DNA from: Alphaproteobacteria bacterium
Lineage (GTDB): Bacteria; Pseudomonadota; Alphaproteobacteria; MPNO01
Direction of reading: 5' to 3'
Assembly: GCA_965248835.1 (NCBI GenBank)
Contig: CBDFLJ010000002.1
Location: forward strand, 2,048,001 to 2,112,000
Length of the DNA stretch: 64,000 bases
Under the pieces are notes generated by a model. It was not told where the DNA came from. It saw only the letters and a list, made by a program, of their open reading frames with translations, and made no database searches. Both the position numbers and the translations under genes were made by a program. Positions 34,081 to 58,908 of this stretch are shown one piece after another (position 1 is the first letter of the stretch; every line of letters begins with the position of its first letter).

Positions 34081-34518
34081 ATGGCAACCACCCGAACGCG
34101 CATCCCGGCGCTTACGTTCACCGGATCCGTTCACGAAGGCATCCCCGTCGCCACCAGAAACCTCGATGCCTGTATCACCTTCTACACCGAGGTGCTGGGA
34201 CTGAAGCTGCTGCCGCGGCCAAAGGCGCTGGACGACTTGGGTCCCGGCGCGTGGCTCGGCGATGAGAACGACACCGTCCAGTTCCACCTCATCGCCAATG
34301 ACGGCGCGCTCAAGCCGTCGGAGGATGCAAAGGTCGAGCCGGCGGGCCGGCACACCGCCTGGCGCATCGCCGATGTCGAGGCCTTCCGCGACCGGATGCG
34401 GGCGCTCGACGTGCCGTTCCAGGAGATCTCGGGCCTGATCGGCGATCCCCAGCTCTTCGTCACCGATCCCCAGGGCCATACCTGGGAGTTCCAGGGACCG
34501 CCCGGCTCGGGCGCGTGA
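34081..34518 (+). CDS. VOC/glyoxalase family protein
   Basis: FYTEVLGL, GAWL, HLI, RHTAW, FVTDPQGHTWE. Confidence 0.85.
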   Translation: MATTRTRIPALTFTGSVHEGIPVATRNLDACITFYTEVLGLKLLPRPKALDDLGPGAWLGDENDTVQFHLIANDGALKPSEDAKVEPAGRHTAWRIADVEAFRDRMRALDVPFQEISGLIGDPQLFVTDPQGHTWEFQGPPGSGA

Positions 34519-34637
34519 AGACCGGCCGCAGGCCGGCACAGGGTGAAACCTCAAGCGACGATCCGCGGCTCGACGCCGGTCCCGGGACCGTCACGCCGTC
34601 GGGGACCGGATTGCCAAACAGCGACAGGAGGCTCTCG

Positions 34638-35714
34638 ATGGACTCTGTTTCACGAATAACCGGGTTTTGCGTCCTCGGCACCGTTGCGCTTGCGGCGATG
34701 GCCACCGTTGGACAGGCCAAGACGATAAAGCTGACCGTGGTCGGCGCCCCGCCGCCGATCGTCACCCCGGTCCAGGTCACCAAGACCTATTTCGTCCCCG
34801 AGGTCGACAAGCGGCTCGCGGCATCGGGCAAGGATTTCAAGATCGAGTGGACCCAGGCCTATTCCTTCACGCTGGCGGGCTTTCACGAGGTGCTGGAGGC
34901 GGTCGAGGAAGGCATTGCCGACGTCGGCGTCCAGATCCACGTCTTCGAGGAATCCAAGCTGCCGCTGGAGAACATCTCGACCTACGTCCCGTTCGGCACC
35001 GCCGATATCCACGCGCTCACCCGGATCATGCGCGATGTGCGCAAGACCGTGCCGGAGATGGACGACACCTGGACCAATCTCAACCAGGTCTATCTGGGGA
35101 CCGGCGTCAACGACACGATCCACATGATGACCAAATTTCCGGTCAGACGTTACGAGGACCTCAAGGGCCACAAGCTCGGCGCGAGCGGAACAATGGGCAA
35201 CTATCTGCTCAACACCGGGGCGGTGGTCGTCAGCTCCAGCATGAACCAGGCCTATCTCCACATAAAGAACGGCCTTTATGACGGATACCCGATCTCCTGG
35301 GGTCTCGGTTTCGCCTACAAGGTCTACCAATCGGCGCCCTATCTGACCAAGGTCAACATCGGCGCCATCGCCGCGACCGGCCTCAGCGTCAACACCGATA
35401 GCTGGAAGAAGCTTCCGGGCTGGGTGCAGACCATCTTCCGCGAAGTCGCGGTCAGCTGGCAGGACCGCCACGCGTCGGTCAGCCTGGGCAAATCGAAGAA
35501 GTTCGAATCCATCATGGTCAAGGCCGGCGCCAAGGTCTCCGAGTTCCCGATGGAAGAGCGCCGCCGGTGGGCCCACGCGCTGCCCAACGTCGCCAAGCAA
35601 TGGGCGGACAGGCTGGAGAAGAAGGGCCTGCCGGCACGCCGCGTGCTCGCGGCCTACATGGGGGGCCTGCGCGCGGTCAAGGCGGAGATCGTCCGCGACT
35701 GGGACAAGGAATAG
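34638..35714 (+). CDS. TRAP transporter substrate-binding protein (DctP family)
   Basis: Signal peptide; VLEAVEEGIADVG; FEESKLPL; DLKGHKLG; NTDSWKKLP; AGGAGG RBS. Confidence 0.88.
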   Translation: MDSVSRITGFCVLGTVALAAMATVGQAKTIKLTVVGAPPPIVTPVQVTKTYFVPEVDKRLAASGKDFKIEWTQAYSFTLAGFHEVLEAVEEGIADVGVQIHVFEESKLPLENISTYVPFGTADIHALTRIMRDVRKTVPEMDDTWTNLNQVYLGTGVNDTIHMMTKFPVRRYEDLKGHKLGASGTMGNYLLNTGAVVVSSSMNQAYLHIKNGLYDGYPISWGLGFAYKVYQSAPYLTKVNIGAIAATGLSVNTDSWKKLPGWVQTIFREVAVSWQDRHASVSLGKSKKFESIMVKAGAKVSEFPMEERRRWAHALPNVAKQWADRLEKKGLPARRVLAAYMGGLRAVKAEIVRDWDKE

Positions 35715-35828
35715 CGGCGGGCCGGACCGCACCGTTCGTCGCTGCTCGCGGCGCGGGTGGAGGCGGATTCCGGGGCACGCCTCCACCCGTAGCCGGGTAA
35801 GAGGGCGCCTCGAAGGAGACCTTTGGAC

Positions 35829-37799
35829 ATGGCGGACACGCCTGCGAGCGGTCACCCGCCGGCTCGAACGGCCGGGCGGCGCCGGCTTGACCCGACCGCG
35901 ATCGTCGATGCGGCGATCTCCGGCCTGAACGCGGTCGGCACGCTGTGGATCTTCGTGATCATGGTGGCGATCAACACCGACGTGTTCAGCCGCTATCTGT
36001 TCAACGCGCCGGTAAGCGGCGTGCCTCTGGTCATCGAGCTGTCAATCGTCGCCATCGTGTTCGTCCAGCTTGCGGCCGCGTTGCGCGGCGGCCGGATGAC
36101 ACGCTCGGACATCCTGATCGGACGCTTGCTCGCTGCCCGGCCGATGGCAGGGCATACGTTGCAGGCCATCTACCACCTCGCCGGCGCGGTGCTGATGGCC
36201 GGGATCTTCAACTATGTGCTGCCGGTCCTGGAAAAGACCTGGAAGCGCGACACCTATGCCGGCCTCGAAGGCGACGTCACGATCCAGGTGTGGCCGTTCA
36301 AGCTCCTGGTCGTCATGGGCGCCGGGTTCTGCGCGGTTCAGTTCTTGCGGGCATTTTGGGCCGATCTCCGGTTCCTCGCCGAACAGCGCCGGGCGGGCAA
36401 CAAAGACCTGCGCGGCCCGCTGGTCGGGATCGCTGCGTCGGCGGCGGTGGGCGCGGTCTTTCTGGCGATAGGCCTGGCGTTGGATTTGACGTCGGTGCAG
36501 GTCGCGCTGATCTCGGTGCTGTTCGTCCTGTTCCTGGTCTATGTCGGCGTGCATGTCGGGGTCGCGCTGTCGCTGTTGTCCTTCGTGTGCGTGTGGATCA
36601 TGCGCGACAACTTCACGATCGCCGGCAAGCTGCTGGCGTTGGCCGCCGCGGAAGGGCTGCAGCGCTACGAATTCGGCGTCATCCCGCTGTTCGTGCTCAT
36701 GGGGCTACTGGTGAGCGTATCGGACATCGGCAAGGATACCTACGACGTCGCCAACCACCTGTTCCGTCGGGTCAGGGCGGGGCTCGGGACCGCGACGGTT
36801 GGCGCGAACGCGGTTTTCGCCGCGGTCACCGGGACCTCGATCGCCTCGGCCTCGGTGTTCACCAAGGTCGCGGTGCCGGAGATGCTGCGGCTCGGCTATC
36901 GGCCCCGCTTCGCGGTCGGCGTGGTCGCCGGCTCCTCGGTCCTCGGCATGCTGATCCCGCCGAGCCTGCTGCTCATCCTGTTCGGCATCCTCGCGGAGAC
37001 CTCGATCGGGGATCTGTTCATCGCCGGCATCGTCCCCGGCATCCTTTTATCGGTCGCTTATTGCGTGCTGATCTGGTTCCTCGCGCACCGTTTTCCCGAC
37101 CGCGTCGCATCGCGCGAAGCGTTGGAGCGCAAGCCCCGATCCGGCCTGTCAACCGGCGCGCTGTGGATCAAGGTCTTACCCATCATCATCCTGATCGTGA
37201 TCGTGCTCGGCGGCATCTATGGCGGCGTGTTCACCGCGACCGAAGCGGGCGGCGTCGGCGCGCTGGGCGCCCTGATCCTGACCGTCATCAAGCGCAAGCT
37301 GAGCTGGCGCACGTTATGGCAGGCGCTCTCGGAGACCGGGCACGTGACGGCGGCGATCTGCTTCCTGCTGGTCGCAGCCCAGCTCTATTCCCGGATGATC
37401 GCGATGTCCGGGCTCCCGAACGTGATGGAGCACTACATCGTCGCATCGGGGCTCGGCTACGCCAGCCTGATCGCGATCTATATCGTCGCGATCATCCTGC
37501 TGGGCACCATCCTCGACGCCGGCTCGATCATGCTGATCACAGTACCGCTCGCGGTCCCCGCGCTGGCCTCATTCAACATAGACCTCGTCTGGTTCGGAAT
37601 CGTGACCATCATCGCTGTCGAGATCGGGCTGCTCACCCCGCCGCTCGGGCTTGCGTGCTTCGTGATCCACAACAACCTGCAGGACGACCGGATCAAGATC
37701 GAGGACATCTTCTGGGGCGCCGCCCCGTTCGCGCTCACCATGCTGGTCGTGCTGATCCTGGTCACCCTTTTCCCCGAGATCGCGCTCACGCTGGTCTGA
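35829..37799 (+). CDS. Fused TRAP small+large permease (DctQM)
   Basis: N-terminal DctQ (DVFSRYLFNAPVSG) plus DctM (IPLFVLMG, LGMLIPPS, FTATEAG, LLTPPLG). Confidence 0.9.
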   Translation: MADTPASGHPPARTAGRRRLDPTAIVDAAISGLNAVGTLWIFVIMVAINTDVFSRYLFNAPVSGVPLVIELSIVAIVFVQLAAALRGGRMTRSDILIGRLLAARPMAGHTLQAIYHLAGAVLMAGIFNYVLPVLEKTWKRDTYAGLEGDVTIQVWPFKLLVVMGAGFCAVQFLRAFWADLRFLAEQRRAGNKDLRGPLVGIAASAAVGAVFLAIGLALDLTSVQVALISVLFVLFLVYVGVHVGVALSLLSFVCVWIMRDNFTIAGKLLALAAAEGLQRYEFGVIPLFVLMGLLVSVSDIGKDTYDVANHLFRRVRAGLGTATVGANAVFAAVTGTSIASASVFTKVAVPEMLRLGYRPRFAVGVVAGSSVLGMLIPPSLLLILFGILAETSIGDLFIAGIVPGILLSVAYCVLIWFLAHRFPDRVASREALERKPRSGLSTGALWIKVLPIIILIVIVLGGIYGGVFTATEAGGVGALGALILTVIKRKLSWRTLWQALSETGHVTAAICFLLVAAQLYSRMIAMSGLPNVMEHYIVASGLGYASLIAIYIVAIILLGTILDAGSIMLITVPLAVPALASFNIDLVWFGIVTIIAVEIGLLTPPLGLACFVIHNNLQDDRIKIEDIFWGAAPFALTMLVVLILVTLFPEIALTLV

Positions 37800-37923
37800 A
37801 GCGGCAATCTCCGGGAAACCGGCCAGTTGCGCGGGGTCGTGGACGGCAGCCGCTGTTCGCCGGCGGTCATGGGTGTCCCAAGTTCCAGCCGGCCACCACG
37901 TTCGTCACCGTGCTCAACGGCGG

Positions 37924-39162
37924 CTACGTCCCGAATGCGGCGACGCGGGCGGTCGGGCGGTCGTCCATGAAGATCTGGGCGATGCCGGCGGTGATGCCGA
38001 TGGCGACACCGATCTGCCAGGCGAGGTCGTAGGAACCGGTCGCATCGACGATCAGGCCGGCGCCCCAGGCGCCGAGGAACGATCCGAGCTGGTGACTGAG
38101 AAACGCGATCCCGGCGAGCGTTGCGACATAACCGAGCCCGAAGATGCGCACGACCAGCCCGTTGACCAGAGGAGCGACGCCGAGCCACAGGATGCCCATG
38201 ACCGCAGCGAAGATCAAAGTGGTCGCGGTCGAGGGCGGGATCATGAAATACACCACGATCGTCAGAGACCGCAGGATGTAGACGGACCCGAGCAGGATGT
38301 GCTTGGGGAACCTGTCGCCGAGCCAGCCCAGGATGTAGCAGCCGAGGGCGTTGAACCCGCCGATCACCGCCAGCGCCGTGGCGCCGAGCGCCGGCGGCTG
38401 GCCGCAGAGCGCGAGATAGGCGGGCAGATGGATGGCGATAAAGACAAGCTGCAGCCCGCAGACGAAGAACGCCACCGCCATGACGATATAGCCCCGGTGG
38501 CCAGCGGCTTCGGCGAGCACCGCCTTGAACGACATCGGCGTCCCGCCGGCCGCCCCCATGTCGAGGGCTTCCCTGTTCACACTGTCACCCGCGCCGGCGA
38601 AGAACGCCGCCGGCAGCATCACCGTGCACAGCCCGATGAATCCGACCATCGCGACCTGCCAGCCCGCACCGTCGATCAGCCCGTGGGCCAGGGGTGCGCA
38701 GATGAACGTCCCGATCGAGCCCACGGCGGCGACCGCGCCCAGGATCGTCGACTGCTTGAGCGGGGAGACCGCCCGCGCCGTCGCGGCGAGCCCGATGTTG
38801 AGCGCGGTGCACGACAGCGCCATACCGACCATCACGCCGAGCCCGATCACCAGTTCGATCGGCTCGGTCGCGTAAATCGTCGCCGCCAGCCCCGCCGCGT
38901 AGAGCAGCGTACCGAGCAACGTCACCACCCGGCAGCCGAAACGGTCGGCGATGCCGCCGATGAACGGCTGGCTGATCCCCCAGACCAGGTTCTGGACCGC
39001 AAGCGCGAGCGTGAAGTCCGCGACGGTGATGCCGATGTCCTGGGTGACCGGGGTGACGAACAGACCGAAGCTTTGGCGCATCCCCATGCTGAGCGTCAGC
39101 ATCGCGCCGGCCCCTGCAAGCACCGTGAGGGTCTGCGGGCGGGTATAGCCGGCCCTGTTCAT
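37924..39162 (-). CDS. MFS transporter
   Basis: GMRQSFGLF, GGIADRFG, FFVCGLQL, SHQLGSFLG. Confidence 0.92.
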   Translation of the reverse strand: MNRAGYTRPQTLTVLAGAGAMLTLSMGMRQSFGLFVTPVTQDIGITVADFTLALAVQNLVWGISQPFIGGIADRFGCRVVTLLGTLLYAAGLAATIYATEPIELVIGLGVMVGMALSCTALNIGLAATARAVSPLKQSTILGAVAAVGSIGTFICAPLAHGLIDGAGWQVAMVGFIGLCTVMLPAAFFAGAGDSVNREALDMGAAGGTPMSFKAVLAEAAGHRGYIVMAVAFFVCGLQLVFIAIHLPAYLALCGQPPALGATALAVIGGFNALGCYILGWLGDRFPKHILLGSVYILRSLTIVVYFMIPPSTATTLIFAAVMGILWLGVAPLVNGLVVRIFGLGYVATLAGIAFLSHQLGSFLGAWGAGLIVDATGSYDLAWQIGVAIGITAGIAQIFMDDRPTARVAAFGT

Positions 39163-40049
39163 GCGCTCTCTCCATGGCGCGCGATCAGGGCGCGCATCGC
39201 ATCGGCCGCGGCCACGCCCTTGCGGGCCCGGCGCCAGAGATCCTCGACGGTCTTATCGTGCAGCGCCAGCGCCTCGGGCGCCGAGGTGATCATCGCAACG
39301 CCGGCGTGGATGTTGGGCTGCTCGCCCAGCCGGAAGGGGCTGAGCGCGAGCACCCGCCGGTCGGGCTGCCGGAAGATCTGGAAGCTGGTCGGCGGCAGGG
39401 TGCTCGGCACCAGGCCGATCTGGATGCCGATCGGCTGCGTGTCCATCAGCGAGACGAAATGTAGCGCCTCCGCCCGGGCGATCGCCAGCCGTTCACGCAC
39501 CACCGCGCCCGGCAGGTCGAGCCGACCGACCAGGCCGTTGCGCAGGAAGCGGCCCATCTCGGCCTCGGAGATCAGGTTGAGCACGCCGGGCCGGCGCGTG
39601 CGGTAGGCTTGCTTGCGTCCGTGCAGGATCTCCATCAGCTCGCCCACCAGGGCCAGCGCGCCGGCCCGGTCCTCCGCCCCATCGGGGATGCTTTCCGAAA
39701 GCACCGCCTCCAGGGTGTCCAGGAAGGCATCCGATGCCAGCAGGAACGAAATCGGCCCGGCCAGCACCACGATATGCTCGGACGTCTCCTCGATCTGGCG
39801 CAGCCGCTCGAAATAGCTGACGGCCGAGCCGATATATTCGACGCCGACGCCCAGGAGCGTCGGCACCGAGACCGCGAGCAGTTCGGCCAGCCGCTCCAGC
39901 GCCTCGATCTTTGCGACCTCGCCCTTCTCGAAGCGGTAGAGCGCGGTCCGCGAAATACCGATCCTTGCCGCCACCTCGTCCGCGCTCAGCCCCGAGCCCA
40001 GCCGGAAGGCGCGCAGCCGGTCCCCGATCTCGGCAAAGCGAATGCTCAT
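39159..40049 (-). CDS. XRE-family HTH regulator with a large C-terminal domain
   Basis: IGDRLRAFRLGSGLSADEVAARIGISRTALYRFEKG; ATGA overlaps at both ends. Confidence 0.88.
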   Translation of the reverse strand: MSIRFAEIGDRLRAFRLGSGLSADEVAARIGISRTALYRFEKGEVAKIEALERLAELLAVSVPTLLGVGVEYIGSAVSYFERLRQIEETSEHIVVLAGPISFLLASDAFLDTLEAVLSESIPDGAEDRAGALALVGELMEILHGRKQAYRTRRPGVLNLISEAEMGRFLRNGLVGRLDLPGAVVRERLAIARAEALHFVSLMDTQPIGIQIGLVPSTLPPTSFQIFRQPDRRVLALSPFRLGEQPNIHAGVAMITSAPEALALHDKTVEDLWRRARKGVAAADAMRALIARHGESA

Positions 40050-42340
40050 CCGGACAGCATAGCCACGATGTCGGCCGGCGAAACCGGGGCGGAAGATAAG
40101 CGGACGCCGCGGGCCGAGAGCGCGTCCTCGATAGCCGAGACGATGGCCGCTGCCGTCGGCACGACGCCGCATTCGCCGACACCCTTGACCCCGATGGGGT
40201 TGAGCGGGCTCGGCGATTCCTGGTGGACGGTGGCGATGCGCGGCATTTCCGGAGCGGAGACCAGCAGATACTCGGCCAGGCTCGTGGTCAAAGGCTGGGC
40301 CTCGTCGTCGAAGCCCATCCATTCGAACAGCGCGTTGCCCACCGCGTGCGCCGCGCCGCCGACGATCTGGCCCTCGACGATAGCCGGGTTGACGATGCGC
40401 CCGCAATCATGCGCCAGCACGAGGTTGAGCAGCCTCACGCCGCCGGTTTCGGGGTCGACCTCGAGCTCGGCCACCGCGGTCCCGTTGGCGAACGGCATGT
40501 CGTCGAGCACCAGGGCCTCGGTGGCGGCGAGCTCCGGCGCGATCCCGGCGGGCAGCGAGAAGCCGGGCGTGCCGGCGACCATCTCCGCAAGATGGCCGAG
40601 GGCGACAGAGATGTCCGGGGCGCCGCGCACCCGCACGTGTCCATCTGCGATCTCCAGATCCTCCGGCGCGGCTTCCAGGACGTGCGCCGCGATCGCCAGC
40701 GCCTTGTCGCGCACGCGGCGGGCCGCCTGGAACGCCGAGCTGCCGGCAGTCACCGCCTGGCGGCTGTTGAACCCGCCGATGCCGAGCGCGATCGCTGCCG
40801 TATCGCCGCTGGTGACCGCGATGTCAGACGGTCTGGCGCCGAGTTCGGCCGCGACCAGGCTGGCAAGCAGGGTCTCGATCCCCTGCCCCATCGCCGCGGC
40901 CCCGGTCGCGACCTCGATACGGCCCGAGGCGTCTATCCTGACGCTTGCCGATTCGAAGGGACCGCGCCCGGTGCCCTTGACGAAGTTGGCCACCCCGATG
41001 CCGCGCAGCCCGCCGGTTGCGGCAGCGCGGCGGCTCGGGAAGCCGTCCCAATCCGCCGCCGCGAGCGCCGCGGCCTGACAGGCCGGGTAGTCGCCGCTGT
41101 CGAGCACGACCGGCTTGCCGGCGCGGTTCTTGAGCGGGCGCGTGCACGGCATCCGTTCGGGCCCGATCAGGTTGCGCCGGCGGATCTCGTCGCGGCCGAG
41201 CCCGAGCATCCGGGCCGACCGGTCGAGCAGGCGCTCCATCACGAACACCGCTTGAGGATGGCCCGCACCACGGACCGGAGTGGCCGGCACCTTGTTGGTG
41301 AGCACCGCACGTGCACGCACGGCATAGGCCGGCACGTCGTACGGCAAGGTCACCGTGAGCGCGGATTCGTAAGGCAGGTTGACCCCGCGCGCGGTGTAGG
41401 CGCCGTGGTCATGGGTGAGAGTGCCGCGAATGCCGCGGATCCGACCATCGGAGTCGAAGGCCGCCTCGAGCTCCCAATGCTGGTCGCGCTCCTGGGTGGC
41501 GGCGACGAAATGCTCGCGCCGATCCTCGATCCACTTGACCGGTGCCCCGACGATCAGGGCGGCGAGCGCGACCACGATCTCCTCGGGGTAGGTGACCAGC
41601 TTGGGGCCGAACCCGCCGCCGACCGCCGGTGTGGCCACCCGCACCGCGCTTTCCGGCCAGCCCAGCATGCCGGCCAGCACCTTGCGCCCGGCATGCGGGG
41701 TCTGGGTCGAGCTCCACAGGCTCAGCCGGTCCTCGAGCGGGTCGACCTGCGCCACCGCGCCGCGACCCTCGATCGAATGCCCGCCGCCGCGATGGATCGA
41801 GAACGACTCGGCGACGACAAGGGGCGCGCCGGCAAATGCGGCTTCGATGTCGCCGAAGCCCGTCTCGAGCTCGGCCAACAGGTTGTGCGGCGCATCGCGA
41901 TGGACCGTCGGGGCGCCAGCGGCCATCGCATCGCGGCAGTCGGCGACCACCGGCAGCGGCCGGTAATCGACTTCGACAAACGGCACCGCATCCTCGGCGC
42001 GATAGCGGCTGTCGGCGATCACCATCGCCACCGGCTCGCCGACATGGACGACCTCGCCGGCGGCAAGCACCGGGCGGTCGCGCATCTGCTGGTAGGCCGG
42101 GCTCGGCAGCCCGACCACCAGCCGCTCGGCGGCAAGATGCGGGCGCAGGTCATCGATCGTCAGCACCGCGCGAACGCCGGGGCGGCCAAGCGCGGCGTCC
42201 TTTTCGATGCCGGCGACCGCGGCATGGGCGTAAGCGCTGCGCACGAAGGCCGCATGCAGCATGCCCGGCAGATGAATGTCGTCGACGAAGCGGGCCCGGC
42301 CGCGCAACAGCCGGGGGTCCTCGACCCGCGCCTCAGCCAC
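40046..42340 (-). CDS. Xanthine dehydrogenase family molybdopterin-binding large subunit (CoxL-like, not a form I CODH)
   Basis: RVEDPRLLRG, VGGGFGPK, PVKWIEDRRE, TPVRGAGHPQ, DSGDYP, MGQG, HDCG..VNP..VEGQ..GG, KGVGE. Confidence 0.92.
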   Translation of the reverse strand: MAEARVEDPRLLRGRARFVDDIHLPGMLHAAFVRSAYAHAAVAGIEKDAALGRPGVRAVLTIDDLRPHLAAERLVVGLPSPAYQQMRDRPVLAAGEVVHVGEPVAMVIADSRYRAEDAVPFVEVDYRPLPVVADCRDAMAAGAPTVHRDAPHNLLAELETGFGDIEAAFAGAPLVVAESFSIHRGGGHSIEGRGAVAQVDPLEDRLSLWSSTQTPHAGRKVLAGMLGWPESAVRVATPAVGGGFGPKLVTYPEEIVVALAALIVGAPVKWIEDRREHFVAATQERDQHWELEAAFDSDGRIRGIRGTLTHDHGAYTARGVNLPYESALTVTLPYDVPAYAVRARAVLTNKVPATPVRGAGHPQAVFVMERLLDRSARMLGLGRDEIRRRNLIGPERMPCTRPLKNRAGKPVVLDSGDYPACQAAALAAADWDGFPSRRAAATGGLRGIGVANFVKGTGRGPFESASVRIDASGRIEVATGAAAMGQGIETLLASLVAAELGARPSDIAVTSGDTAAIALGIGGFNSRQAVTAGSSAFQAARRVRDKALAIAAHVLEAAPEDLEIADGHVRVRGAPDISVALGHLAEMVAGTPGFSLPAGIAPELAATEALVLDDMPFANGTAVAELEVDPETGGVRLLNLVLAHDCGRIVNPAIVEGQIVGGAAHAVGNALFEWMGFDDEAQPLTTSLAEYLLVSAPEMPRIATVHQESPSPLNPIGVKGVGECGVVPTAAAIVSAIEDALSARGVRLSSAPVSPADIVAMLSG

Positions 42341-42878
42341 CGTGTTCGGGCGGTAGCGCGAGGGTGCCGAAGAAGATCTGCATCCCGTAGTGGAAGGCGA
42401 TGAAGGCGCCGAGATCCATGATCCCGGCCTCGCTGTAGTGGGTCTTGCCTTCCTCGTAGAACGCCTTGTCGACCCGCTTGGGCTCGCGGAACATCAGCCA
42501 GGCGTAGCGCAGCGCCCATTTCTCCGCCGGCGAGAACCGCAGATCGGTCTCGAAATCGCCGCAGCCGGCTTCGATCATGTCCTCGGTGAGCCCCGCCTCC
42601 TGGGCGCGCTTGGACCGCAAAGCGGAAAAATAGGGATCGTTCGCGAGCCGGGCGAGCTGGATGCGGATAATCTCCTTCAGCCGGTGGTCGAGGTTGCCGC
42701 CGGCATGCGAGCGCTCCAGCGCATCGTGCAGCGTCTCGGCATAGCCCGGCACATGGGCGAGCAGCCGAACAAACCGACTGTCGGGCACGCCGGCCTCCTC
42801 GGAGCGGGCGATCAGGGCCTGGAGCGTCTCGTCCCCGATCGCCTCGCGGGGCACCGGCTTGATCACGGCGCGGCCCAC
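42333..42878 (-). CDS. AhpD/CMD-like protein lacking the redox CxxC (DPYF)
   Basis: LDHRLKEIIRIQLARLANDPYFSALRS...GLTEDMI...FSPAEK; clear paralog of the upstream gene. Confidence 0.85.
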   Translation of the reverse strand: MGRAVIKPVPREAIGDETLQALIARSEEAGVPDSRFVRLLAHVPGYAETLHDALERSHAGGNLDHRLKEIIRIQLARLANDPYFSALRSKRAQEAGLTEDMIEAGCGDFETDLRFSPAEKWALRYAWLMFREPKRVDKAFYEEGKTHYSEAGIMDLGAFIAFHYGMQIFFGTLALPPEHGG

Positions 42879-42882
42879 CGCC

Positions 42883-43530
42883 CTACTCCGCAGCCGGCGC
42901 GAGGCCGGCGCGCCGGGCCGCCCCCTTCAGGTGCGAGACCGGGCTGTCGCCGTAGATCCGCCGCGACTCCGCCTGATCGACCAGTCGGCCGTCCGGGGTG
43001 AACATCGGGAAGAAATCGAGCGTGCCGAAGAAGGTGTGGAAGCCGATGTTGAAACCGACGAAGGCCCCGAGCTCGACGATCTCCGCGACCGTGTAGTGCT
43101 CTGCGAGTTCCTCGTAGAACGCCGCATCGATCTTCTCGGGCGCGGTGGCCATAAGCTCGCTATAGAGAAGGGCGATCTTCTCGGCCGGCGTGAAGCGCTG
43201 CGAGCCGGCATGGTTGTCGATGCCCTCGTCGATCAGATCTTCCGTGAGGCCCTGCTGCTTCGCCGAAGCAGACCGGACATTGCCTCAATAGTTGCAATCG
43301 GCCATCCGCGAGAGTTGCACGCGAATGACCTCCTTGAGCTTGTGATCGATCTGCCCGGTGTTGAAAACCGCCCCCCAGGCCAGGTACATCGCGCGCGAAA
43401 GATCCGGGTTATGACCCATCATCGCATGAAACGCGGGATCCGGCGCCTTGTGCCGCAACGCCTTGTTAATCAGCGGTTTCAGGCTGGTCTTCTTGAGATC
43501 GTCGATGTCGAGCATCGAAATGTTGGGCAT
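42883..43530 (-). CDS. AhpD/CMD-like putative selenoprotein (CxxU, Sec at codon 82, 215 aa)
   Basis: Track ORFs 43285..43554 and 42883..43152 are one frame separated only by TGA: RMADCNY-U-GNVRSASAKQQGLTEDL; downstream hairpin; final stop TAG. Confidence 0.85.
43246..43287 (-). promoter_or_regulatory. Candidate bacterial SECIS element
   Basis: UGA+13 nt, then CTGCTTC-GGC-GAAGCAG; possible lower stem GAGGC/GCCTC. Confidence 0.6.
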
Positions 43531-43590
43531 AGCCGGATTGCTCCCGAAGCGCATGTACTCATCAGGATGCCAATGACATCATGCGCGGTC

Positions 43591-43626
43591 AATATAAGCA
43601 GGCGGTTCTGCTGTTTGAAACGGCAG
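43591..43626 (-). promoter_or_regulatory. Candidate promoter (TTCAAA-17-TATATT) overlapped by the palindrome CTGCTGTTTGAAACGGCAG
   Basis: Dyad at 43608-43626 with 8 of 9 arm positions matching, covering the putative -35. Confidence 0.45.
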
Positions 43627-43850
43627 TTCAATTTTCGACTCGACGGCTCGCGAGAGTTTCTCGATCTCCACACGATAGCCGGGCCGATCACGGGCCGCGA
43701 TCACGGCGCCGGCGCAGCGACCGGGAATGGAAGCATGCTCGACCTGCCCGGAGACGTTCGAATCTTGACTCGGATCGAGGACACCGGTGATCTTCTTATC
43801 GGAGGCGAGGTTGAACTCGCCGTCGGCTTTCCAACCAGACGAGGCGGGAC

Positions 43851-45203
43851 ATGGCAGACTCTCATCCGCAATACTGGGCGGGTCCGATCGAGACCGCGAG
43901 CCGCGAGGAACTGCGCGCCTGGCAGGAGGAGCGGCTCGCTCCCCTGGTCGATTGGCTGGGCGAACGCTGCCCTTACTGGCGACGGAAATTCGGCGAGATC
44001 GGCATCGCGCCCGGCGACGTCAGGACGCTCGAGGACCTCGCCGCCCTGCCCCACGTCACCAAGGCGATCTATGCCGAGAACATGGACGCCAACCCGCCCT
44101 ACGGCGACTTCCTGTGCTATCCGGAAGAGGAGGTCCACCGCATGGGTGCGATCGTCTTCCGGACGACCGGGACGACCGGTCGGCAGCGCTGGTTCATCAA
44201 CACGCATGAGGGCTACCAGCATTTCGGCAACCAGGGACTCCGCTGCCTGTGGTGCGCCGGCATCCGCCCCGGCGAAATGGTGATGTCGATCCTGCCGCTG
44301 TCGCTGTGGTCGGCCGGCTGGGGGTTCTATTACGGATGCCGCAAGGCCGGCATGACCTACCTGTCGGCGGGGCCGCCCTACGACACGCGCATGCGGCTCG
44401 ATCTGATCGGCGACTACCGCCCGGCGGCGATCTGCCTGACCCCGTCCTACGCGCTGACGCTGGCAAGCGCCGCGCAGGAGAACGGGATCGACATCAAGAA
44501 CGCCGGCGTCCGCGCGCTGATCATGGGCGGCGAGCCGTTCCCCGAGTCGCGTCGGCGCAAGATCGAGGAGGCCTGGGGCATCCCCGGCGGGGCGCGGGAT
44601 TTTTCCGGCATCACCGAGGGCGGGCCGCTCTACATGGGCTCGGAGTGCGATGCCCAACAGGGCGAGCACCTCTACGAGGACGAGGCGATCTTCGAGTTCG
44701 TCGAGATCGGCGGAACCAAACCGGTCGGGCCGGGTGAGCTGGGCGAGTTGGTCTTCACCGCGCTGAACCAGCGGGTGATGGGCACCAGCTTCCATTACCG
44801 CACCGGCGATATCGTCCGCTATAGAGAGGAACCGTGCTCCTGTGGCCGCACCCATCGGCGGATCAACGGCATCGAGGGGCGGGTCGACGACATGGTCAAG
44901 GTGCGCGGCGTGAATATCTTCCCTTCGGCGATCGAAGAGATCATCCGCCAGATCCCGAGCCTCGCCGACGACTTCATGCTGGTGCTCGAACGCGGCACGG
45001 CCGGCGACGAGGTGACGGTCGAGGTCGAGCCGGCCTCGGGTCTGGAGACCGGCAGCTACGCCGATGCAGGCGGCGCGCTCGAGGCCGAACTGCGCCGGGC
45101 GATGGCGATCCGCATCCCGGTGCGCATCGCCGAGCCCGGCTCGTTGCCCCGGTTCGAGCTCAAGGCCCAGCGCTGGATCGACCGCCGACCGGACGAGGGT
45201 TAG
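43851..45203 (+). CDS. Phenylacetate-CoA ligase family protein (PaaK-like)
   Basis: RTTGTTG, TPSYA, GGEP, GELVFT, YRTGD, GRVDDMVKVRGVNIFPS. Confidence 0.88.
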   Translation: MADSHPQYWAGPIETASREELRAWQEERLAPLVDWLGERCPYWRRKFGEIGIAPGDVRTLEDLAALPHVTKAIYAENMDANPPYGDFLCYPEEEVHRMGAIVFRTTGTTGRQRWFINTHEGYQHFGNQGLRCLWCAGIRPGEMVMSILPLSLWSAGWGFYYGCRKAGMTYLSAGPPYDTRMRLDLIGDYRPAAICLTPSYALTLASAAQENGIDIKNAGVRALIMGGEPFPESRRRKIEEAWGIPGGARDFSGITEGGPLYMGSECDAQQGEHLYEDEAIFEFVEIGGTKPVGPGELGELVFTALNQRVMGTSFHYRTGDIVRYREEPCSCGRTHRRINGIEGRVDDMVKVRGVNIFPSAIEEIIRQIPSLADDFMLVLERGTAGDEVTVEVEPASGLETGSYADAGGALEAELRRAMAIRIPVRIAEPGSLPRFELKAQRWIDRRPDEG

Positions 45204-45213
45204 GCGGGCCGGC

Positions 45214-45990
45214 CTACCAACCGGCGCCCTCGGGCAGGCGCAAACCCGTCGCGCGGACCTCCGCGGGCGTCGGTGCTCGCAGCTTCAGCCGGTCCATAAC
45301 CGGCATCACGTTGCCCAGCCAGATCGGAAGCTGGTCCTCGCTGTCTTCCTTCTTGAGTCCGTAATAGTGGAATTTCTGCTGCTTTTCGCTGCGCGGATTG
45401 CCCAGCAGGCGGATCGACTTGGCGAACCACTCATCGACGCTTTCCTGGACCCTTGCCCGCGCCTGGCCTCCGTTGTCTTCGATGTGCCGGATCAGATGGA
45501 CCGGCCCCCCCTCGGCATGCTCCTCCTCCTCGGCGATGATGGCCTGGTTGGCGTCGGCATAGGGCGCATAGCTCGAATCGCGCATCGACCACAGGAACAA
45601 CCGGCCGCTCTCCTCGGCAAGCCAGTTGAACACCAGCACGTCCTCCCAATTGCGCGGGAAGTCCGCGGCGCCGTAAAAGTCCGCCGCGAACGGCCGGTCG
45701 TGGTTCCTGAACAGGCTGTAGTCCAGCCCGATACCGGGAAGGATGCCGGCAATGACCTGGCAGTGCTCGGATTCCTCCTCCGCCAAGTGGGCGCAGTAGA
45801 GCACCTTGTCAGGCCCTTCCCGATAGAAATGGGAAGCCGCCTTGGCGAAGATGCACGCTGCGGACAACTCTTCCAGGAGCTGGCGAGAGACCACCCAGCG
45901 GAGCAGGTCCTTGTACTCCTGCGGCGTGGTCTCGAACGTCTCTTCGGTGATCTCCCGCGGGACGTAAATCGGCGTGACCATGTCGGACAT
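45214..45990 (-). CDS. PaaA/PaaC/BoxB-like ferritin-fold diiron protein
   Basis: EEESEH and EEEEH motifs, DSSYAPYA, VDEWF, YGLK; GGAGG RBS. Confidence 0.75.
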   Translation of the reverse strand: MSDMVTPIYVPREITEETFETTPQEYKDLLRWVVSRQLLEELSAACIFAKAASHFYREGPDKVLYCAHLAEEESEHCQVIAGILPGIGLDYSLFRNHDRPFAADFYGAADFPRNWEDVLVFNWLAEESGRLFLWSMRDSSYAPYADANQAIIAEEEEHAEGGPVHLIRHIEDNGGQARARVQESVDEWFAKSIRLLGNPRSEKQQKFHYYGLKKEDSEDQLPIWLGNVMPVMDRLKLRAPTPAEVRATGLRLPEGAGW

Positions 45991-46133
45991 CGAAACCTCC
46001 TGCGCCGCGGATGATCGACGTTTTCCGTCCGATTCCGCTTGTGAAATATTGCCCGATGCATTTCATTCCACCTGCCGGAGCGCTGTCAACGAACGCGAGG
46101 GACTTGCAAGCACCCGGCCCGGGAGGCTACGCG

Positions 46134-47324
46134 ATGACAGATCAGACACCGGAGCATGAAAGCGCGCGGGCGGGGGCGTTGCGGGACCGTGCGCTGTCAC
46201 TCGTCCCGGTTCTGGCCGAGCGGGCCGCGGCGTGCGAACGGCAGCGCCAGCTCCTGCCCGAGACGATCGCGGATCTCAAGGCCAACGGCTTGCACAAGCT
46301 CTGCCAGCGGGCGCGCTTCGGCGGTACCGAGCTTCCGCTCGACAAGGCCGCCGACATCATCTCGGTGTTGGCGCGCGGCTGCTCGTCCACTGCCTGGGTG
46401 TGTGCGATCTACTGCGATCATTCGATCCTGCTCGGCCGGTTCGACGATGCGGCGGCCGACGATGTCTGGGCCGAATCGCCCGATGCTCTGGTATCGGCCG
46501 GGTTCATCCCCTCCGGCACCGCCGAGCGCACCAGCGAGGGCTGGCGGGTGTCCGGCACCTGGGACTTCTCCAGCGGCTGCGACTATGCGGACTGGCTCCT
46601 GGTCGGAAGCCCGCTGCCGACGCAGGACGGCGAGATCCAGCCCAGCCTCTGCCTGGTGCCGCGGAGCGAGGTCGAGATCGACGACAACTGGTACGCGATG
46701 GGGCTGGCCGGGACCGGCAGCAAGAACCTCGTCATCGAGAGCACCATCGTGCCGGAATACCGCACGCTGCCGCTGTGGAAGGTGGGCGGCGGCGCGGCCG
46801 GGGGCGGGCGCGCCGACGTGCCGCCGCTCTATCGGCTGCCCCACTTTCCGACCGTGCCGTTCCTGTTCCTGTCGACCGGTCTCGGGGTCGCCGAGAGCTT
46901 GCTCGAGGCGACGATCGCCGAGCTCGGCGAGCGCACCTCGCGGCTCGGCGACAAGATCTCGCAGATGCAGTCCATCCAGCTCCGCATCGCGGAGTCCGCC
47001 GCGGAGATCGACTGCGCCCGCATGCTGATCATGCGCGGCTGCGGCGAAGCGATGGCGGCGATGCGCGCCGACAGGGCCTTCAGCATCGACCAGAGGGCAC
47101 GGAACCGGCGCGATCAGGCCTATGCCGGCAGGCTGTGCCGCCGCGCGGTCGATCGCCTGTTCGAATCCCTCGGCGGGCACGGGCTTTATGCCGACAACGC
47201 CTCGCAACGGAAGTTCCGCGACATGTACGCGGTCAACGGCCACATTTCCGGCAACTGGGATATCGCCGGCACGACCTACGGCCGCATCGCCTTCGGCCTC
47301 GACCCGGAAACCATCTTCATCTGA
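46134..47324 (+). CDS. Two-component flavin-dependent monooxygenase, oxygenase subunit (acyl-CoA dehydrogenase fold, HsaA-like)
   Basis: GCSSTAWV, SGTWDFSSGCD, DNWYAMGLAGTGS, QRKFRD. Confidence 0.88.
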   Translation: MTDQTPEHESARAGALRDRALSLVPVLAERAAACERQRQLLPETIADLKANGLHKLCQRARFGGTELPLDKAADIISVLARGCSSTAWVCAIYCDHSILLGRFDDAAADDVWAESPDALVSAGFIPSGTAERTSEGWRVSGTWDFSSGCDYADWLLVGSPLPTQDGEIQPSLCLVPRSEVEIDDNWYAMGLAGTGSKNLVIESTIVPEYRTLPLWKVGGGAAGGGRADVPPLYRLPHFPTVPFLFLSTGLGVAESLLEATIAELGERTSRLGDKISQMQSIQLRIAESAAEIDCARMLIMRGCGEAMAAMRADRAFSIDQRARNRRDQAYAGRLCRRAVDRLFESLGGHGLYADNASQRKFRDMYAVNGHISGNWDIAGTTYGRIAFGLDPETIFI

Positions 47325-47361
47325 GAACGAAAAAGAACATCGTGCCTGTTTGTTCTCTGTA

Positions 47362-48105
47362 TCAGATCTGTGCGTGACCGCCGTCGACCATCAGCTCCGA
47401 GCCGGCCATGAAGCGTGAATCCGACGAGGCGAGGAAGACCGCGGCGCGCGCGATCTCGCTCGGATCGCCGAAACGCTTCATCGGCACGTCGGCGAGCAAG
47501 ATCTGATCGCGGTTCTCCAGGACCTCCCGCGGCAGTCCCATCTTCTCGAAGATCGGCGTTTCGACCGGGCCGGGGCTGAGCACGTTGACCCGGATCCCGC
47601 GTGGCACCAGGGCGGCGCACAGCGTCCGGCCGAGCGACCGGATCGCGGCCTTGGTCGCGGCGTAGACCGCCTGCTCGGCGACTCCCAGATGCCCGAGAGC
47701 CGAGGACAGAAGGATGACGGAGCCGCCGTCCTTCAGATACGGCAGCGCCTTCTGCACGGTGAAGAAGGTGCCCTTGAAGTTGGTCTCCGACATGGCTGCG
47801 AACGTCGCCTCGTCGACGTCCTCGAACGGACGGGCCAGCGAGATGCCGGCGTTGGCGACGACGACGTCGATCCGCCCGAAATGGTCGTGGGCATCGTGAA
47901 ACAGCCGCTCGAGATCGGACACCGCGCGGACATCGCCCGAGACCGCGAGGCTTTTCGGAAGCTCCGCCCGCGCCGCCTCGAGCGCCGCCGCGTCGCGCCC
48001 GAAGATCGCCACCTGGGCGCCTTCGACCGTGAACGCTCCGGCGATCGCACGCCCGATGCCGCTGGAGCCGCCGGTTACCACGGCCACGAGCCCTTCGAGC
48101 CTCAT
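47362..48105 (-). CDS. SDR family oxidoreductase
   Basis: TGGSSGIG, ANAG, YAATK, SPGPVETP. Confidence 0.92.
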   Translation of the reverse strand: MRLEGLVAVVTGGSSGIGRAIAGAFTVEGAQVAIFGRDAAALEAARAELPKSLAVSGDVRAVSDLERLFHDAHDHFGRIDVVVANAGISLARPFEDVDEATFAAMSETNFKGTFFTVQKALPYLKDGGSVILLSSALGHLGVAEQAVYAATKAAIRSLGRTLCAALVPRGIRVNVLSPGPVETPIFEKMGLPREVLENRDQILLADVPMKRFGDPSEIARAAVFLASSDSRFMAGSELMVDGGHAQI

Positions 48106-48234
48106 CGTATCCCTCCGTCCGACAATTGCGGCCTCGATGCATCAATCCCAAGACCTTGGCGTCTTGGACGGCAGCCGCAGGTCAAAAGCATGTTCCAATC
48201 GGATCGAACCCGTCCAGTTCGTTCAGAACATGCT

Positions 48235-49314
48235 CTAAGCCCGCCGCGGGACAAGGACCGTGTAGTCGAGGTCGAGCACGACGGCAGGATCGTACTTGCC
48301 GGCACCGTCGCGGTCGGGGAACTCCTCGCAGGTGCGGTTCTTGAGGGCGAGCGTGCGGATGCGCAGGGCGCCGACATCGGTCCGGCCGGGCAGCACCATC
48401 TTGTGCAGGACCTCGGTCCAGGCATGGAGCGTGTCGCCTGCAAAGGCCGGTGCGGTGTGGCGCCCGGCATTGATCGCGGCCACCTTGAAGGCATTCGGGA
48501 AGCCGTTGAACGTCAGGCTCCGGGCGAGGCCGATGACGTGGCCGCCCATGACCACGCGGCGCCCGAAGCGGCTGTCCGCGCTCAACTGCGCATTGAAATG
48601 GATCGGTGCGGGGTTCTGGGAAAGCCGCGTCAGCATCATGTGCTCGGCCTCCTCGATGGTGAGGCCGTCGCGGTGGTCGATCCGCTCACCCGGCGCGTAG
48701 TCGTCCCAGAAATAGGGCCCGCCCGCCCGGACAGTGTCATAGGCCGTCAGATCCAACGCCGTGGGCACGACGACCGCCTCGGCCGGCACCGCCGGGGGAA
48801 GCTCCGGCACGCAAGGCTCCGGCGCGGCCGATGCCGGATCACGCTTGCGCACCAGGACCCAGCGCACATAGGACGCGACGACCTCCTCGCGCTGGTTGAC
48901 GCCGATGGTGCGGACATAGACCACGCCCGCCTGCCCGCTGGAGGCCTCGCGGAGACCGATTACCGTCGAGGCGGCGCGCAGCGTGTCGCCGGGATAGACG
49001 AACCCGTCGAGCCGCCCGTCGGCGTAGCCGAGGTTCGAGACCGCGTTGAACGAGATGTCGGTAACCGTCTTGCCGAGGATGACGTTGAACACCAGGACAT
49101 CGTCGATCGGTGTCGTCTCCAGGCCCAGCCCCCTGGCGAACTCCCGGGAGGAATTGACCACGAACCGCGAGCCGGAAAGCGCGAGGTTAAGGGCCGCATC
49201 GCCCTCGGTGAGCGTGCGGGGACCCGCATGAACGATCTCCTGGCCCGCGCGGAAATCTTCAAAGAAGTTGCCGCGCGCGGCCTTGTCGCCGATCGTTTGC
49301 TTGCGTGAGGTCAT
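48235..49314 (-). CDS. Double MaoC dehydratase (mesaconyl-CoA hydratase / beta-methylmalyl-CoA dehydratase-like)
   Basis: GNFFEDF, GKTVTDISFNAVSNLGY, WVLVRKRD, GERIDHRDG.TIEEAEH, INAGRHTAP, VVLDLDY. Confidence 0.85.
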   Translation of the reverse strand: MTSRKQTIGDKAARGNFFEDFRAGQEIVHAGPRTLTEGDAALNLALSGSRFVVNSSREFARGLGLETTPIDDVLVFNVILGKTVTDISFNAVSNLGYADGRLDGFVYPGDTLRAASTVIGLREASSGQAGVVYVRTIGVNQREEVVASYVRWVLVRKRDPASAAPEPCVPELPPAVPAEAVVVPTALDLTAYDTVRAGGPYFWDDYAPGERIDHRDGLTIEEAEHMMLTRLSQNPAPIHFNAQLSADSRFGRRVVMGGHVIGLARSLTFNGFPNAFKVAAINAGRHTAPAFAGDTLHAWTEVLHKMVLPGRTDVGALRIRTLALKNRTCEEFPDRDGAGKYDPAVVLDLDYTVLVPRRA

Positions 49315-49420
49315 CGAGTGCCGTCTGCACGCTATCCTACCGCCGAGGATCGAGCCGCGCCAATATACGCGGGCCGCACGCAAGCCGTCCTGAGGGCGGG
49401 AAGAGATCGGGAGAGAGACG

Positions 49421-57727: not shown

Positions 57728-58825
57728 TCAAGCCAGCGCGTCGATGCCGAGTTCGGCGCGGATTTCCGCGGTGTTGGCCTCCTTGACCGCCTCCAGCGGG
57801 ATGCCGGTCGCATCGGCCACCCGGTCGAGTGCGCTGTAGTTGGCGATGACGGCTGCCGCATCGACCAGCCCGGCATCGCCCACCGCATCGCGGAGCCGCC
57901 GACGGGCCGCACCCAGCCGGGGCTGGTCATCGCCGAGCACCGCCTCGACGAAGTCGATCAACTGCGCGCCGTACCGCACCCCGCCGCCGCCGGCACCGCC
58001 CATGACCGCCTTGAAATCGATGTCCTCGCCGGTGGCATTTGCGCTCGCACGGAGCATCTCAACATGGGTGGTGGTTCAGTAGAAGCACCCGTTGATCGCC
58101 GAGACCCGTCCGGCGATCAACTCCATCTGGGCGCGCGTGATGGCACGGTGGCGGGACGCGGGATCGGCCATGAACGCGGGCGGGAGGTATTGCGCATCGA
58201 CCATGTCGAACAGGCCGCAGGCCTCGGCCGGCACCAGGCTCAGGGCGCACCGAATATAGGTCGGATCGGGCGAGGGATAGACCTTCTCCAGACACGCCTC
58301 GTCCGCGGTCATGTCTGCGGGCGCCAGCATCGCGACCCACGCCGGCCCGGGTTTCGCGCCGACGGGGCGCACGCGCGACGGCGCGCCGGCCGTGGGCTGC
58401 GGCAGCGGATGGAGCGGCACGCCGAGAGCCCGGGCGAAGATGTCCACGGCGATCGTGGTCACCACCACGCCGATGGTCTCGACGAACGCTTCTTCGCTGA
58501 GGCCGCCGGCGATCGCGCGCTCGTACCAGGCGCGGGTGAGCCTGCCGGGGTCGGTAGCGGTCCGGTGGACGACCTCCACCACGATTTCAGGCAGATCGCC
58601 CAGGCCCCTGTGTCCGCCGGCAACCGCATAAGGTGTCAGCGCCGCCTTGGCCTCGCGGCAGTAACCGCAGCGCGCGGCGTTCCGCGTCTCCGCGGCGATT
58701 GCGATCCGCCGCTCGGCGTCCCACCACGTCCCCGGCTCGGCAAGACGCTGCCAGGCCCGTCGGTGCGCCGCCGTCAGGTCCTGCCGCACCGGCGTCGCCG
58801 CTGCATCGTAGCTCAGCACAGCCAC
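57728..58825 (-). CDS. Alkylhydroperoxidase (AhpD)-related putative selenoprotein (CxxUxxxH, about 365 aa)
   Basis: Track ORFs 58076..58882 and 57728..58057 are in frame across one TGA: RVSAINGCFY-U-TTTHVEMLRAS; hairpin downstream; start uncertain (58825-58882). Confidence 0.85.
58036..58078 (-). promoter_or_regulatory. Candidate bacterial SECIS element
   Basis: After UGA: CAT(G)TTG(AGA)TGCTC-CGTGC-GAGCG CAA ATG; GU in the apical loop at +26/+27. Confidence 0.55.
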
Positions 58826-58908
58826 CGCCGGTCCCCGGTCATGACGATACCGATAATGTGCATACGGCGTTCGGTCCATCAAGGCGGCCGGACGCGGCGC
58901 GGGCCGGT

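Follow-up and report, generated by a model that had tools for sequence, protein, structure and literature searches.

A predicted AhpD-like selenoprotein with a conserved paralog lacking the redox pair, apparently joined to a CoxL-XRE module in a single clade

A stretch of 64,000 nucleotides (nt) from an alphaproteobacterial genome (contig CBDFLJ010000002.1, positions 2,048,001 to 2,112,000; C2:2048001-2112000 in the coordinates used here), hereafter the window, carries on its minus strand five genes that encode, head to tail, an AhpD-like protein of the CMD family with a C-x-x-U motif (AhpD1), a paralog without this redox pair (AhpD2), a large subunit of the xanthine-oxidase family of molybdenum (Mo) hydroxylases (CoxL), an XRE-family regulator and an MFS transporter. 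The original prediction, made from the sequence alone, had described five packed minus-strand genes, as the open reading frames (ORFs) and their junctions confirmed, and had proposed them as a candidate new five-gene system in which the AhpD pair may serve the Mo enzyme. Our analysis points to another reading: the locus is probably a lineage-specific joining of two separately conserved modules, AhpD1-AhpD2 and CoxL-XRE, and AhpD1 and AhpD2 probably act together as a heteromeric selenol oxidoreductase. What looks new is the constant presence of the redox-dead paralog. The source genome (G000) has a size of 4.9 Mb and is rated 100% complete, with a contamination given as 9.51%.

The AhpD1 frame is interrupted by a TGA (43287-43285) that is codon 90 counted from the first ATG, and the CxxU motif of the original prediction was upheld as C-N-Y-U in a protein with a CMD match. 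To place this codon in a wider context, relatives of AhpD1 were surveyed; 80 loci were listed, with proteins 66-92% identical to AhpD1, out of a population that may be 80 or larger, and their records are labelled as Rhodospirillales/Defluviicoccus, Burkholderiales and Xanthobacteraceae metagenome-assembled genomes (MAGs), plus a few bins labelled otherwise. The TGA was found at the U90 codon in all 80 related loci, although the search query had Cys at that position, and the frame stays open past it, with a mean column identity of 73% on either side. A hairpin stem begins 16 nt past the U of the UGA. Over 62 distinct sequences, 87.9% of the stem cells are paired versus 29.8-59.5% in registers slid by 1-3 columns; shuffles had 83.9% of the stem cells paired, and none of the 500 reached the observed value. 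Pair 18-32, which joins a synonymous third position of a Ser codon with a second position of a Gln/Arg codon, covaries in the same set (CG in 27 sequences, UA in 27, UG in 8, unpaired in none), and the remaining stem pairs are invariant or vary only by loss, so that the covariation amounts to one pair. The search of the genome for sel genes that the original prediction had suggested was positive as well: selA and selB lie side by side at C1:1178871-1182127, selD is also present, and a tRNA-Sec gene is located 2 kb further on. Because the TGA is universal among the relatives, the hairpin covaries and selA, selB, selD and tRNA-Sec are all encoded, the in-frame TGA is very probably a selenocysteine (Sec) codon.

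If the TGA were instead a true stop, AhpD1 would be a disrupted gene or a pair of small ORFs, and no selenoprotein would be made. Two observations agree with such a reading, namely that under translation table 11 the frame splits into two ORFs of 89 residues each, and that the single 76-nt stretch folds no better than shuffles (z = -0.45). Nevertheless, a stop would have to sit at the same codon in every relative, in a frame that remains open and equally conserved on both sides, upstream of a covarying hairpin and in a genome with the full Sec machinery, in which four further CMD genes, one of them inside the window, also have CxxU with an in-frame TGA; we regard a true stop as hardly credible. 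In 8 of the 80 loci (L058, L059, L067, L068, L069, L072, L074 and L078; Burkholderiales, Alphaproteobacteria and Pseudolabrys records) the pair neighbours selA and selB, which lie a few kb off on the opposite strand; this proximity suggests that AhpD1-AhpD2 is among the main clients served by the Sec machinery of these genomes.

The second gene of the pair encodes a protein 41% identical to AhpD1, whose CMD match reaches 23.2 bits versus a cut-off of 23. Relative to AhpD1 it shows the replacements C87 to D, U90 to F, H43 to V and H173 to Q, while K74/E75, H71 and R94 of AhpD1 are kept. That this paralog lacks the redox pair, as originally predicted, can be read directly from its sequence (D-P-Y-F), and the trait is conserved along with the gene. 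AhpD2 lies directly downstream of AhpD1 in 78 of the 80 loci, and a further locus (L021), in which it is cut by the contig end after 68 residues, brings the total to 79; at the last one (L011) the contig stops before AhpD2 could begin. Across 38 aligned sequences D81, Y83 and R88 of AhpD2 are invariant and F84 is conserved in at least 90%. In the taxonomic order of the source genome, the pair was present in 16 of 78 genomes, adjacent in all 16 and with one TGA in each AhpD1, and a search with the window copy of AhpD2 gave no match in a further 400 genomes drawn evenly from the phylum. The source genome has a single copy of the pair. Judged from these alignments, the redox-dead AhpD2 is a conserved partner rather than a product of decay, because it adjoins AhpD1 in 79 of 80 loci and keeps D81, Y83 and R88 invariant.

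The surroundings of the pair are far from constant. No other ORF cluster is common to more than 24 of 81 loci, and the neighbours that could be named vary among SDR, HMGL-like, cupin, FAA hydrolase, CoA-transferase III, TRAP transporter, GFO/IDH/MocA and M24 peptidase genes; the neighbourhoods show no common substrate theme. No AhpC-type gene was seen among the pair neighbours examined, and no halogenation genes were seen near the pair.

AhpD1 exceeds the gathering score of the CMD domain (PF02627; 34 bits versus a cut-off of 23), and its C87 and U90 align with the CxxC motifs of PA0269 (C-A-Y-C) and Bmp8 (C-M-Y-C). By its profile scores AhpD1 is a separate subfamily of the AhpD-like/CMD CxxU selenoproteins, because it stays under the curated NCBIfam model cut-offs (TIGR01926, 30.3 versus 81.8; NF053654, 57.5 versus 310; NF041047, 18.9 versus 110). 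M. tuberculosis AhpD and the PA0269-type alkylhydroperoxidases (2ijc, 7xw1, 2o4d), which are thiol-based redox proteins forming homo-oligomers, have the same fold with a CxxC aligned to C87/U90, whereas AhpD1 has Sec in place of the second Cys and would belong to an oligomer with two kinds of subunit, one of which is devoid of a redox centre; in addition, the His that follows the CxxC of PA0269 is Arg in AhpD1. As close to AhpD1 as any solved protein is Bmp8 (6ohi/6ohj; E value of 1.1e-6 for 6ohi), which we take to be a tetrabromopyrrole debrominase acting by reductive dehalogenation. Bmp8 resembles AhpD1 in its CMD fold, its similar length and the position of its CxxC, and differs from it in having Cys instead of Sec and in being encoded by a single gene.

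The original prediction had regarded the arrangement as undescribed, which holds in part. The Sec-containing AhpD kind itself is not new, since, as far as the published accounts go, it has been in print since 2005: AhpD-like CxxU selenoproteins (COG2128/YciW type) were reported with 27 sequences from the Sargasso Sea in that year (PMC1088965), 'AhpD-like 1' was the fourth largest selenoprotein family, with 299 genes, in the GOS study of 2008 (PMC2398784), and AhpD-like selenoproteins are listed in reviews (PMC9312934, PMC13188914). AhpD1 shares with the published proteins the CMD/AhpD fold, Sec as the second residue of the CxxU pair and a hairpin of the bacterial selenocysteine insertion sequence (SECIS) type after the UGA; its relatives come mostly from MAGs (Rhodospirillales, Burkholderiales and others). 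In contrast, a paralog without Cys and Sec beside an AhpD-like selenoprotein was not found in the portions of the published accounts that were covered, and this part of the claim stood. The literature on marine selenoproteins, in the portions covered, gives no function for the AhpD-like CxxU family, which is among the most abundant marine selenoprotein families (PMC2398784).

Taken together, the features of the pair make it reasonable to infer a heteromeric selenol module. Its two-gene cassette would consist of AhpD1, with the C-x-x-U motif, and an old tandem paralog, AhpD2, that may have kept the fold while losing the Cys, the Sec and two conserved His. Since CMD-fold proteins are oligomeric, AhpD1 and AhpD2 may form a hetero-oligomer, in which AhpD1 would act as a selenol/thiol oxidoreductase, with U90 attacking, C87 resolving and a selenenylsulfide formed between both, and AhpD2 would contribute no catalysis but serve as a structural subunit or as one that docks the substrate. 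The substrate could be a peroxide, a partner protein of the peroxiredoxin type or an electrophilic small molecule. Should one subfamily always be accompanied by a stripped paralog, its functional enzyme would probably combine an active subunit with a pseudo-subunit in one heteromer; this would change the strategy for expression and assay of the selenoenzyme and would make the pair a clear example of a selenoenzyme whose partner is dead.

The large subunit was confirmed as CoxL-like by its three domains, Ald_Xan_dh_C, MoCoBD_1 and MoCoBD_2 (89.8, 252.1 and 225.1 bits, respectively), and by the predicted PVRGAGH loop at residues 355-361; GGGFGPK and GVGECG motifs are also present, and the three motifs are identical across all 30 rows of the wider CoxL clade. 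The solved proteins closest to it are large subunits of L-M-S enzymes, i.e. those with a large subunit (L), an FAD subunit (M, CoxM) and a [2Fe-2S] subunit (S, CoxS): 6-hydroxypseudooxynicotine dehydrogenase (7dqx, 1e-149), a mycobacterial CoxL (8uem) and quinoline 2-oxidoreductase (1t3q). With the L-M-S hydroxylases (7dqx, 1t3q and form II CoxL-like proteins) it shares the three domains, the GGGFGPK and GVGECG motifs and a full-length alignment, but the window CoxL has no adjacent S and M genes, carries the PVRGAGH loop and is followed by an XRE gene with an overlapping start. All curated equivalog cut-offs were missed, the best being NF040766 (711.8 versus 950). The active-site loop of form I aerobic CO dehydrogenase is AYxCSFR, and CoxL failed the test for this enzyme both by its score (TIGR02416, 484.1 versus 991.15) and by its PVRGAGH loop. 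Likewise, the hint at a Mo enzyme with labile selenium found no support: no YqeB (TIGR03309), which marks selenium-dependent Mo hydroxylases, was found in the genome rated 100% complete, YqeC not being searched, and the TIGR03311 score of CoxL is 263.4 versus 830.45.

As originally stated, no CoxM or CoxS gene occurs in the window, since none of the 24 Fer2_2 or 23 FAD_binding_5 matches of the genome falls inside it. However, the claim that an orphan CoxL is a special trait did not survive the genome-wide search for coxS, coxM and xdhC, which yielded 73 large-subunit genes (examples at C2:12608, 23111 and 32146, and C1:1662343 and 1664776) versus 24 [2Fe-2S] and 23 FAD subunit genes, and one XdhC-type gene. 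Of the 73 large-subunit genes, 24 lie within 6 kb of both an S and an M gene, 3 lie within this distance of just one, and 46 are near no such gene; an orphan large subunit is nothing unusual in the source genome. Four CoxL paralogs show 52-56% identity to the window protein, and one of these (C2:1966564, 52%) has its own S and M genes. As sister orthologs belong to CoxM-CoxS-CoxL operons, the window CoxL most likely relies on [2Fe-2S] and FAD subunits whose genes lie at another locus. First-look counts of large-subunit candidates in other genomes of the order reach up to 98 and are mostly about 35-90, so the expansion looks order-wide; nothing bearing on the locus was found in the literature on orphan coxL genes, form II coxL copy numbers, CO dehydrogenase in Defluviicoccus and the Bmp8 debrominase. 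These counts expose a puzzle, as large-subunit genes are numerous in the genomes of this order and most lack electron-transfer subunits.

To ascertain how the pair and CoxL are linked across relatives, the loci were compared gene by gene. In 11 of the 14 nearest loci the pair is followed by a CoxL ortholog (73-84% identical). Contig ends cut two of the three others, and the third, the closest relative (L002), has CoxL reduced to residues 700-764 and frameshifted between AhpD2 and XRE; AhpD2, XRE and MFS are intact in this locus, with identities of 92% for AhpD1, 94% for XRE and 88% for MFS. In L005/L094 (one genus-g6 genome), genes for HD-domain and nucleotidyltransferase proteins separate AhpD2 from CoxL (L005:9357-11367). 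None of the other 66 pair loci, 49 of which reach at least 3 kb beyond AhpD2, has a CoxL ortholog. Three of these 66 have a member of the xanthine-oxidase family, 28-30% identical, that is encoded on the opposite strand at the edge of the locus, 6.6 kb or more away, and the idea that the pair is a general marker of Mo enzymes was rejected on this count. Conversely, CoxL (60-64%) followed by XRE (67-73%) was found in 11 loci of families f3 and f5, an AhpD gene being absent from the 1.5 kb upstream, where a divergent znuA or a divergent CoxM gene lies instead, and two loci with CoxL proteins 61-62% identical (L103 and L111) show CoxM-CoxS-CoxL operons followed by MarR. The original prediction had named as a sign against itself that homologous CoxL genes would normally sit with S and M subunits and without AhpD; the orthologous CoxL genes of sister clades are accompanied by XRE alone (11 loci) or by S and M (the two M-S-L loci), AhpD is absent from both kinds, and the coupling and the five-gene system fail by the signs that the original prediction had itself set.

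In a quick maximum-likelihood tree of CoxL, all 15 CoxL proteins of family f1 form one clade (support of 100 in the Shimodaira-Hasegawa-like approximate likelihood ratio test, SH-aLRT); 13 of them have the pair directly upstream, one has it at 2.3 kb and one is cut by the contig end. This clade is nested in the 30-row clade (SH-aLRT 97), together with XRE-only and M-S-L forms. Since each module occurs without the other and the f1 CoxLs are a single clade, the tree indicates that CoxL-XRE and AhpD1-AhpD2 were joined once. The proposal of a new five-gene system was not sustained: the order is confined to one monophyletic clade, the modules occur separately, L002 is devoid of a complete CoxL, and the gene-neighbourhood comparison showed that the five families do not recur together in independent lineages. 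In the favoured reading, the second module would be CoxL translationally coupled to the XRE regulator, and in one family-level clade the cassette would have been placed upstream of CoxL-XRE, with MFS added in two genera.

The XRE and MFS assignments of the original prediction were borne out by helix-turn-helix (HTH) and MFS_1 matches. The HTH of the regulator is restricted to residues 7-63 (HTH_31, 47.9 bits; HTH_3, 40.1 bits), and profile matches to SinR and HipB cover this part alone; the C-terminal region of about 230 residues has no Pfam, NCBIfam or PDB sequence match. An Atlas match of this domain to DUF5753 (score of 0.86) is a lead only, and an AlphaFold model of XRE built with 26 sequences is poor, with a mean predicted local distance difference test (pLDDT) value of 57.5 and residues 211-261 below 50. 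Mean column identity over the full length of the XRE alignment (A4) is 84%, and the identity to the window copy is 67-94% for XRE versus 60-84% for CoxL; by these values XRE is better conserved than the enzyme gene that precedes it. The CoxL-XRE pair is found in 26 loci, whether the AhpD pair is present or not, and from its distribution XRE is a conserved partner of this CoxL clade. MFS is restricted to the nearest genera (L001, L002 and L088); the genus-g6 loci lack it, and the first gene identified downstream of XRE in them is a convergent semialdehyde dehydrogenase gene at a distance of about 0.8 kb. A separate observation concerns 9 of the f3 loci (L105-L112 and L114), in which the stretch between CoxL and the divergent znuA gene contains the perfect palindrome GTTATA(A/T)TATAAC, about 170 nt upstream of CoxL; it resembles a Zur box, in which case the znuA side, and possibly CoxL-XRE, would be under zinc control.

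The original prediction had suggested that the pair may serve the Mo enzyme, and a dedicated partnership, with AhpD1/AhpD2 as electron acceptor of the orphan CoxL or as the factor that installs or repairs its Mo sulfido or seleno ligand, would account for the tight coupling of the genes (a 4-nt gap and an 8-nt overlap), for an order kept in 15 genomes of three genera, for a window without S or M gene and for a single XdhC-type gene serving 73 large-subunit genes. We nevertheless consider it very unlikely, as 66 loci have the pair but no CoxL ortholog, 11 loci have CoxL-XRE but lack the pair, the PVRGAGH loop is shared by sister orthologs from M-S-L operons, and L002 lost CoxL and kept the pair. 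Moreover, none of the 45 other orphan large subunits of the genome is encoded beside an AhpD1- or AhpD2-like gene, the pair being single-copy, at most three more CMD-CoxL adjacencies are possible among 16 CMD matches, and YqeB was not found. We know of no xanthine-oxidase-family enzyme that passes electrons from its Mo centre directly to a thiol or selenol protein, which also counts against a dedicated partnership. On the same comparisons, a link of the pair to the Mo enzyme is unlikely, and the claim that the pair accepts electrons from this enzyme or matures it was not supported, with 66 pair loci lacking a CoxL ortholog and sister CoxLs lacking AhpD. A narrower version, in which the heteromer was recruited as CoxL partner in this clade alone, taking up reducing equivalents of the Mo centre or keeping its sulfuration, seems to us scarcely more than a long shot; if true, it would represent a new wiring of a xanthine-oxidase-family enzyme and a hint at the function of dozens of orphan large subunits. 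Overall, the analysis removes a tempting coupling of selenium to molybdenum as a false lead.

Several facts weigh against the joining of two independent modules as we favour it. The pair-CoxL-XRE order is kept in 15 genomes of genera g1, g5 and g6 with tight or overlapping junctions, as a functional link would also produce; going back to one clade, however, this conservation does not tell function from inheritance. Every S/M set in the genome already adjoins a large subunit of its own. A second CMD gene, unrelated and devoid of Sec, is separated by about 1.9 kb and an FAA hydrolase gene from another orphan CoxL (C2:21219/23111, and a mirrored copy on C1), in a cluster for aromatic catabolism that also has Rieske oxygenase and GST genes. 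CMD-CoxL proximity therefore recurs and amounts to 3 cases versus about 1.3 expected by chance, a rough estimate that was not computed. The 15-genome order, the second CMD-CoxL case and the catabolic setting of the window would keep a loose pathway link open; the same facts lend no support to a role of the pair in accepting electrons from the Mo enzyme or in maturing it.

Such a loose link would have MFS taking up a substrate, CoxL hydroxylating it with borrowed S and M subunits and the pair acting on a product or by-product, for example by removing peroxide formed at the flavin or by a Bmp8-like reductive dehalogenation. The overlapping genes suggest co-transcription, the window holds catabolic genes (PaaK-like ligase, acyl-CoA dehydrogenase, SDR, MaoC hydratase and TRAP transporter), the pair also lies among catabolic enzymes elsewhere, Bmp8 matches AhpD1 with its CxxC aligned to the redox pair, and the closest solved relative of CoxL is a dehydrogenase of a nicotine pathway. 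Set against this are the varied neighbourhoods of the pair without a common substrate theme and the origin of the CoxL association in a single event. We therefore regard pathway coupling as doubtful, although it deserves some weight, and prefer the joining of two modules with a heteromeric selenol pair.

As a separate observation, the stretches around the second CMD-CoxL case (L081, G000:C1:266000-279000, and L082, G000:C2:15000-28000) are mirror images whose successive ORFs agree in size (Rieske oxygenase, CMD, FAA hydrolase, CoxL, GST and zinc-dependent alcohol dehydrogenase), with a CoxL frame of 600 versus 1086 residues; they may represent an inverted duplication or two assembly haplotypes.

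Table 1. Coordinates of the five genes and associated elements within the window.
Feature	Position	Strand	Basis
AhpD1, CMD-fold selenoprotein, C87-N-Y-U90	42883..43554	(-)	ORF and read-through translation; CMD 34 bits
AhpD2, CMD-fold paralog, D-P-Y-F replacing C-x-x-U	42333..42878	(-)	GTG start; CMD match
CoxL-like xanthine-oxidase-family Mo-hydroxylase large subunit, 764 residues	40046..42340	(-)	GTG start; three domains
XRE-family regulator, 296 residues	39159..40049	(-)	N-terminal HTH and C-terminal domain of about 230 residues without family match
MFS transporter, monocarboxylate / oxalate-formate-like, 412 residues	37924..39162	(-)	MFS_1 match
In-frame UGA read as selenocysteine	43285..43287	(-)	TGA in 80/80 related loci; Sec machinery in genome
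SECIS-like hairpin, 7-bp stem CUGCUUC/GAAGCAG, GGC loop	43255..43271	(-)	Fold and alignment
Candidate promoter-like match TTCAAA-17-TATATT overlapping TTGAA-N7-TTCAA	43591..43626	(-)	Consensus match

Regarding the layout of the locus (Table 1), the 4-nt gap separates AhpD1 from AhpD2, the 8-nt overlap joins AhpD2 to CoxL, and ATGA overlaps are found at both the CoxL/XRE and the XRE/MFS junctions; on the basis of these tight or overlapping junctions the five genes are probably co-transcribed. The true start of AhpD1 is probably the ATG at 43530, because conservation in the AhpD1 alignment begins at the corresponding M9. The single promoter/operator proposed originally upstream of the genes was not substantiated. 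One sigma-70-like match (43619-43591) was found versus 0.6 ± 0.8 expected from shuffles, which is not above chance and leaves it as a candidate only, and the overlapping inverted repeat is not conserved as such in the upstream regions of relatives, genus g6 carrying CCAAC-N6-GTTGG instead. No common operator motif was shared among the upstream regions of the window, of g6 and of the XRE-only loci. An Rfam scan of 37600-44000 (E <= 1) gave just a chance microRNA match and no curated SECIS or riboswitch family.

On the side of AhpD1, the flank (43851-49383) contains genes for a PaaK-like CoA ligase, divergent from AhpD1, a PaaA/PaaC-like protein, an acyl-CoA dehydrogenase, an SDR and a MaoC/mesaconyl-CoA hydratase, and on the opposite side (34515-37799) a TRAP transporter (DctP and a fused DctQM) is convergent with the MFS gene; by gene content, the window is a catabolic neighbourhood. 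Further along the same strand, a second candidate for a CMD-family selenoprotein was found at 57728-58879 (-). It has 383 residues, with C-G-Y-C in the N-terminal half and C-F-Y-U in the C-terminal half (U codon at 58078-58076), and ends at a second TGA. Two-domain paralogs of this candidate are located at C2:1306197 and C2:2479778, and a single-domain CMD protein with C-P-F-U is located at C2:185526.

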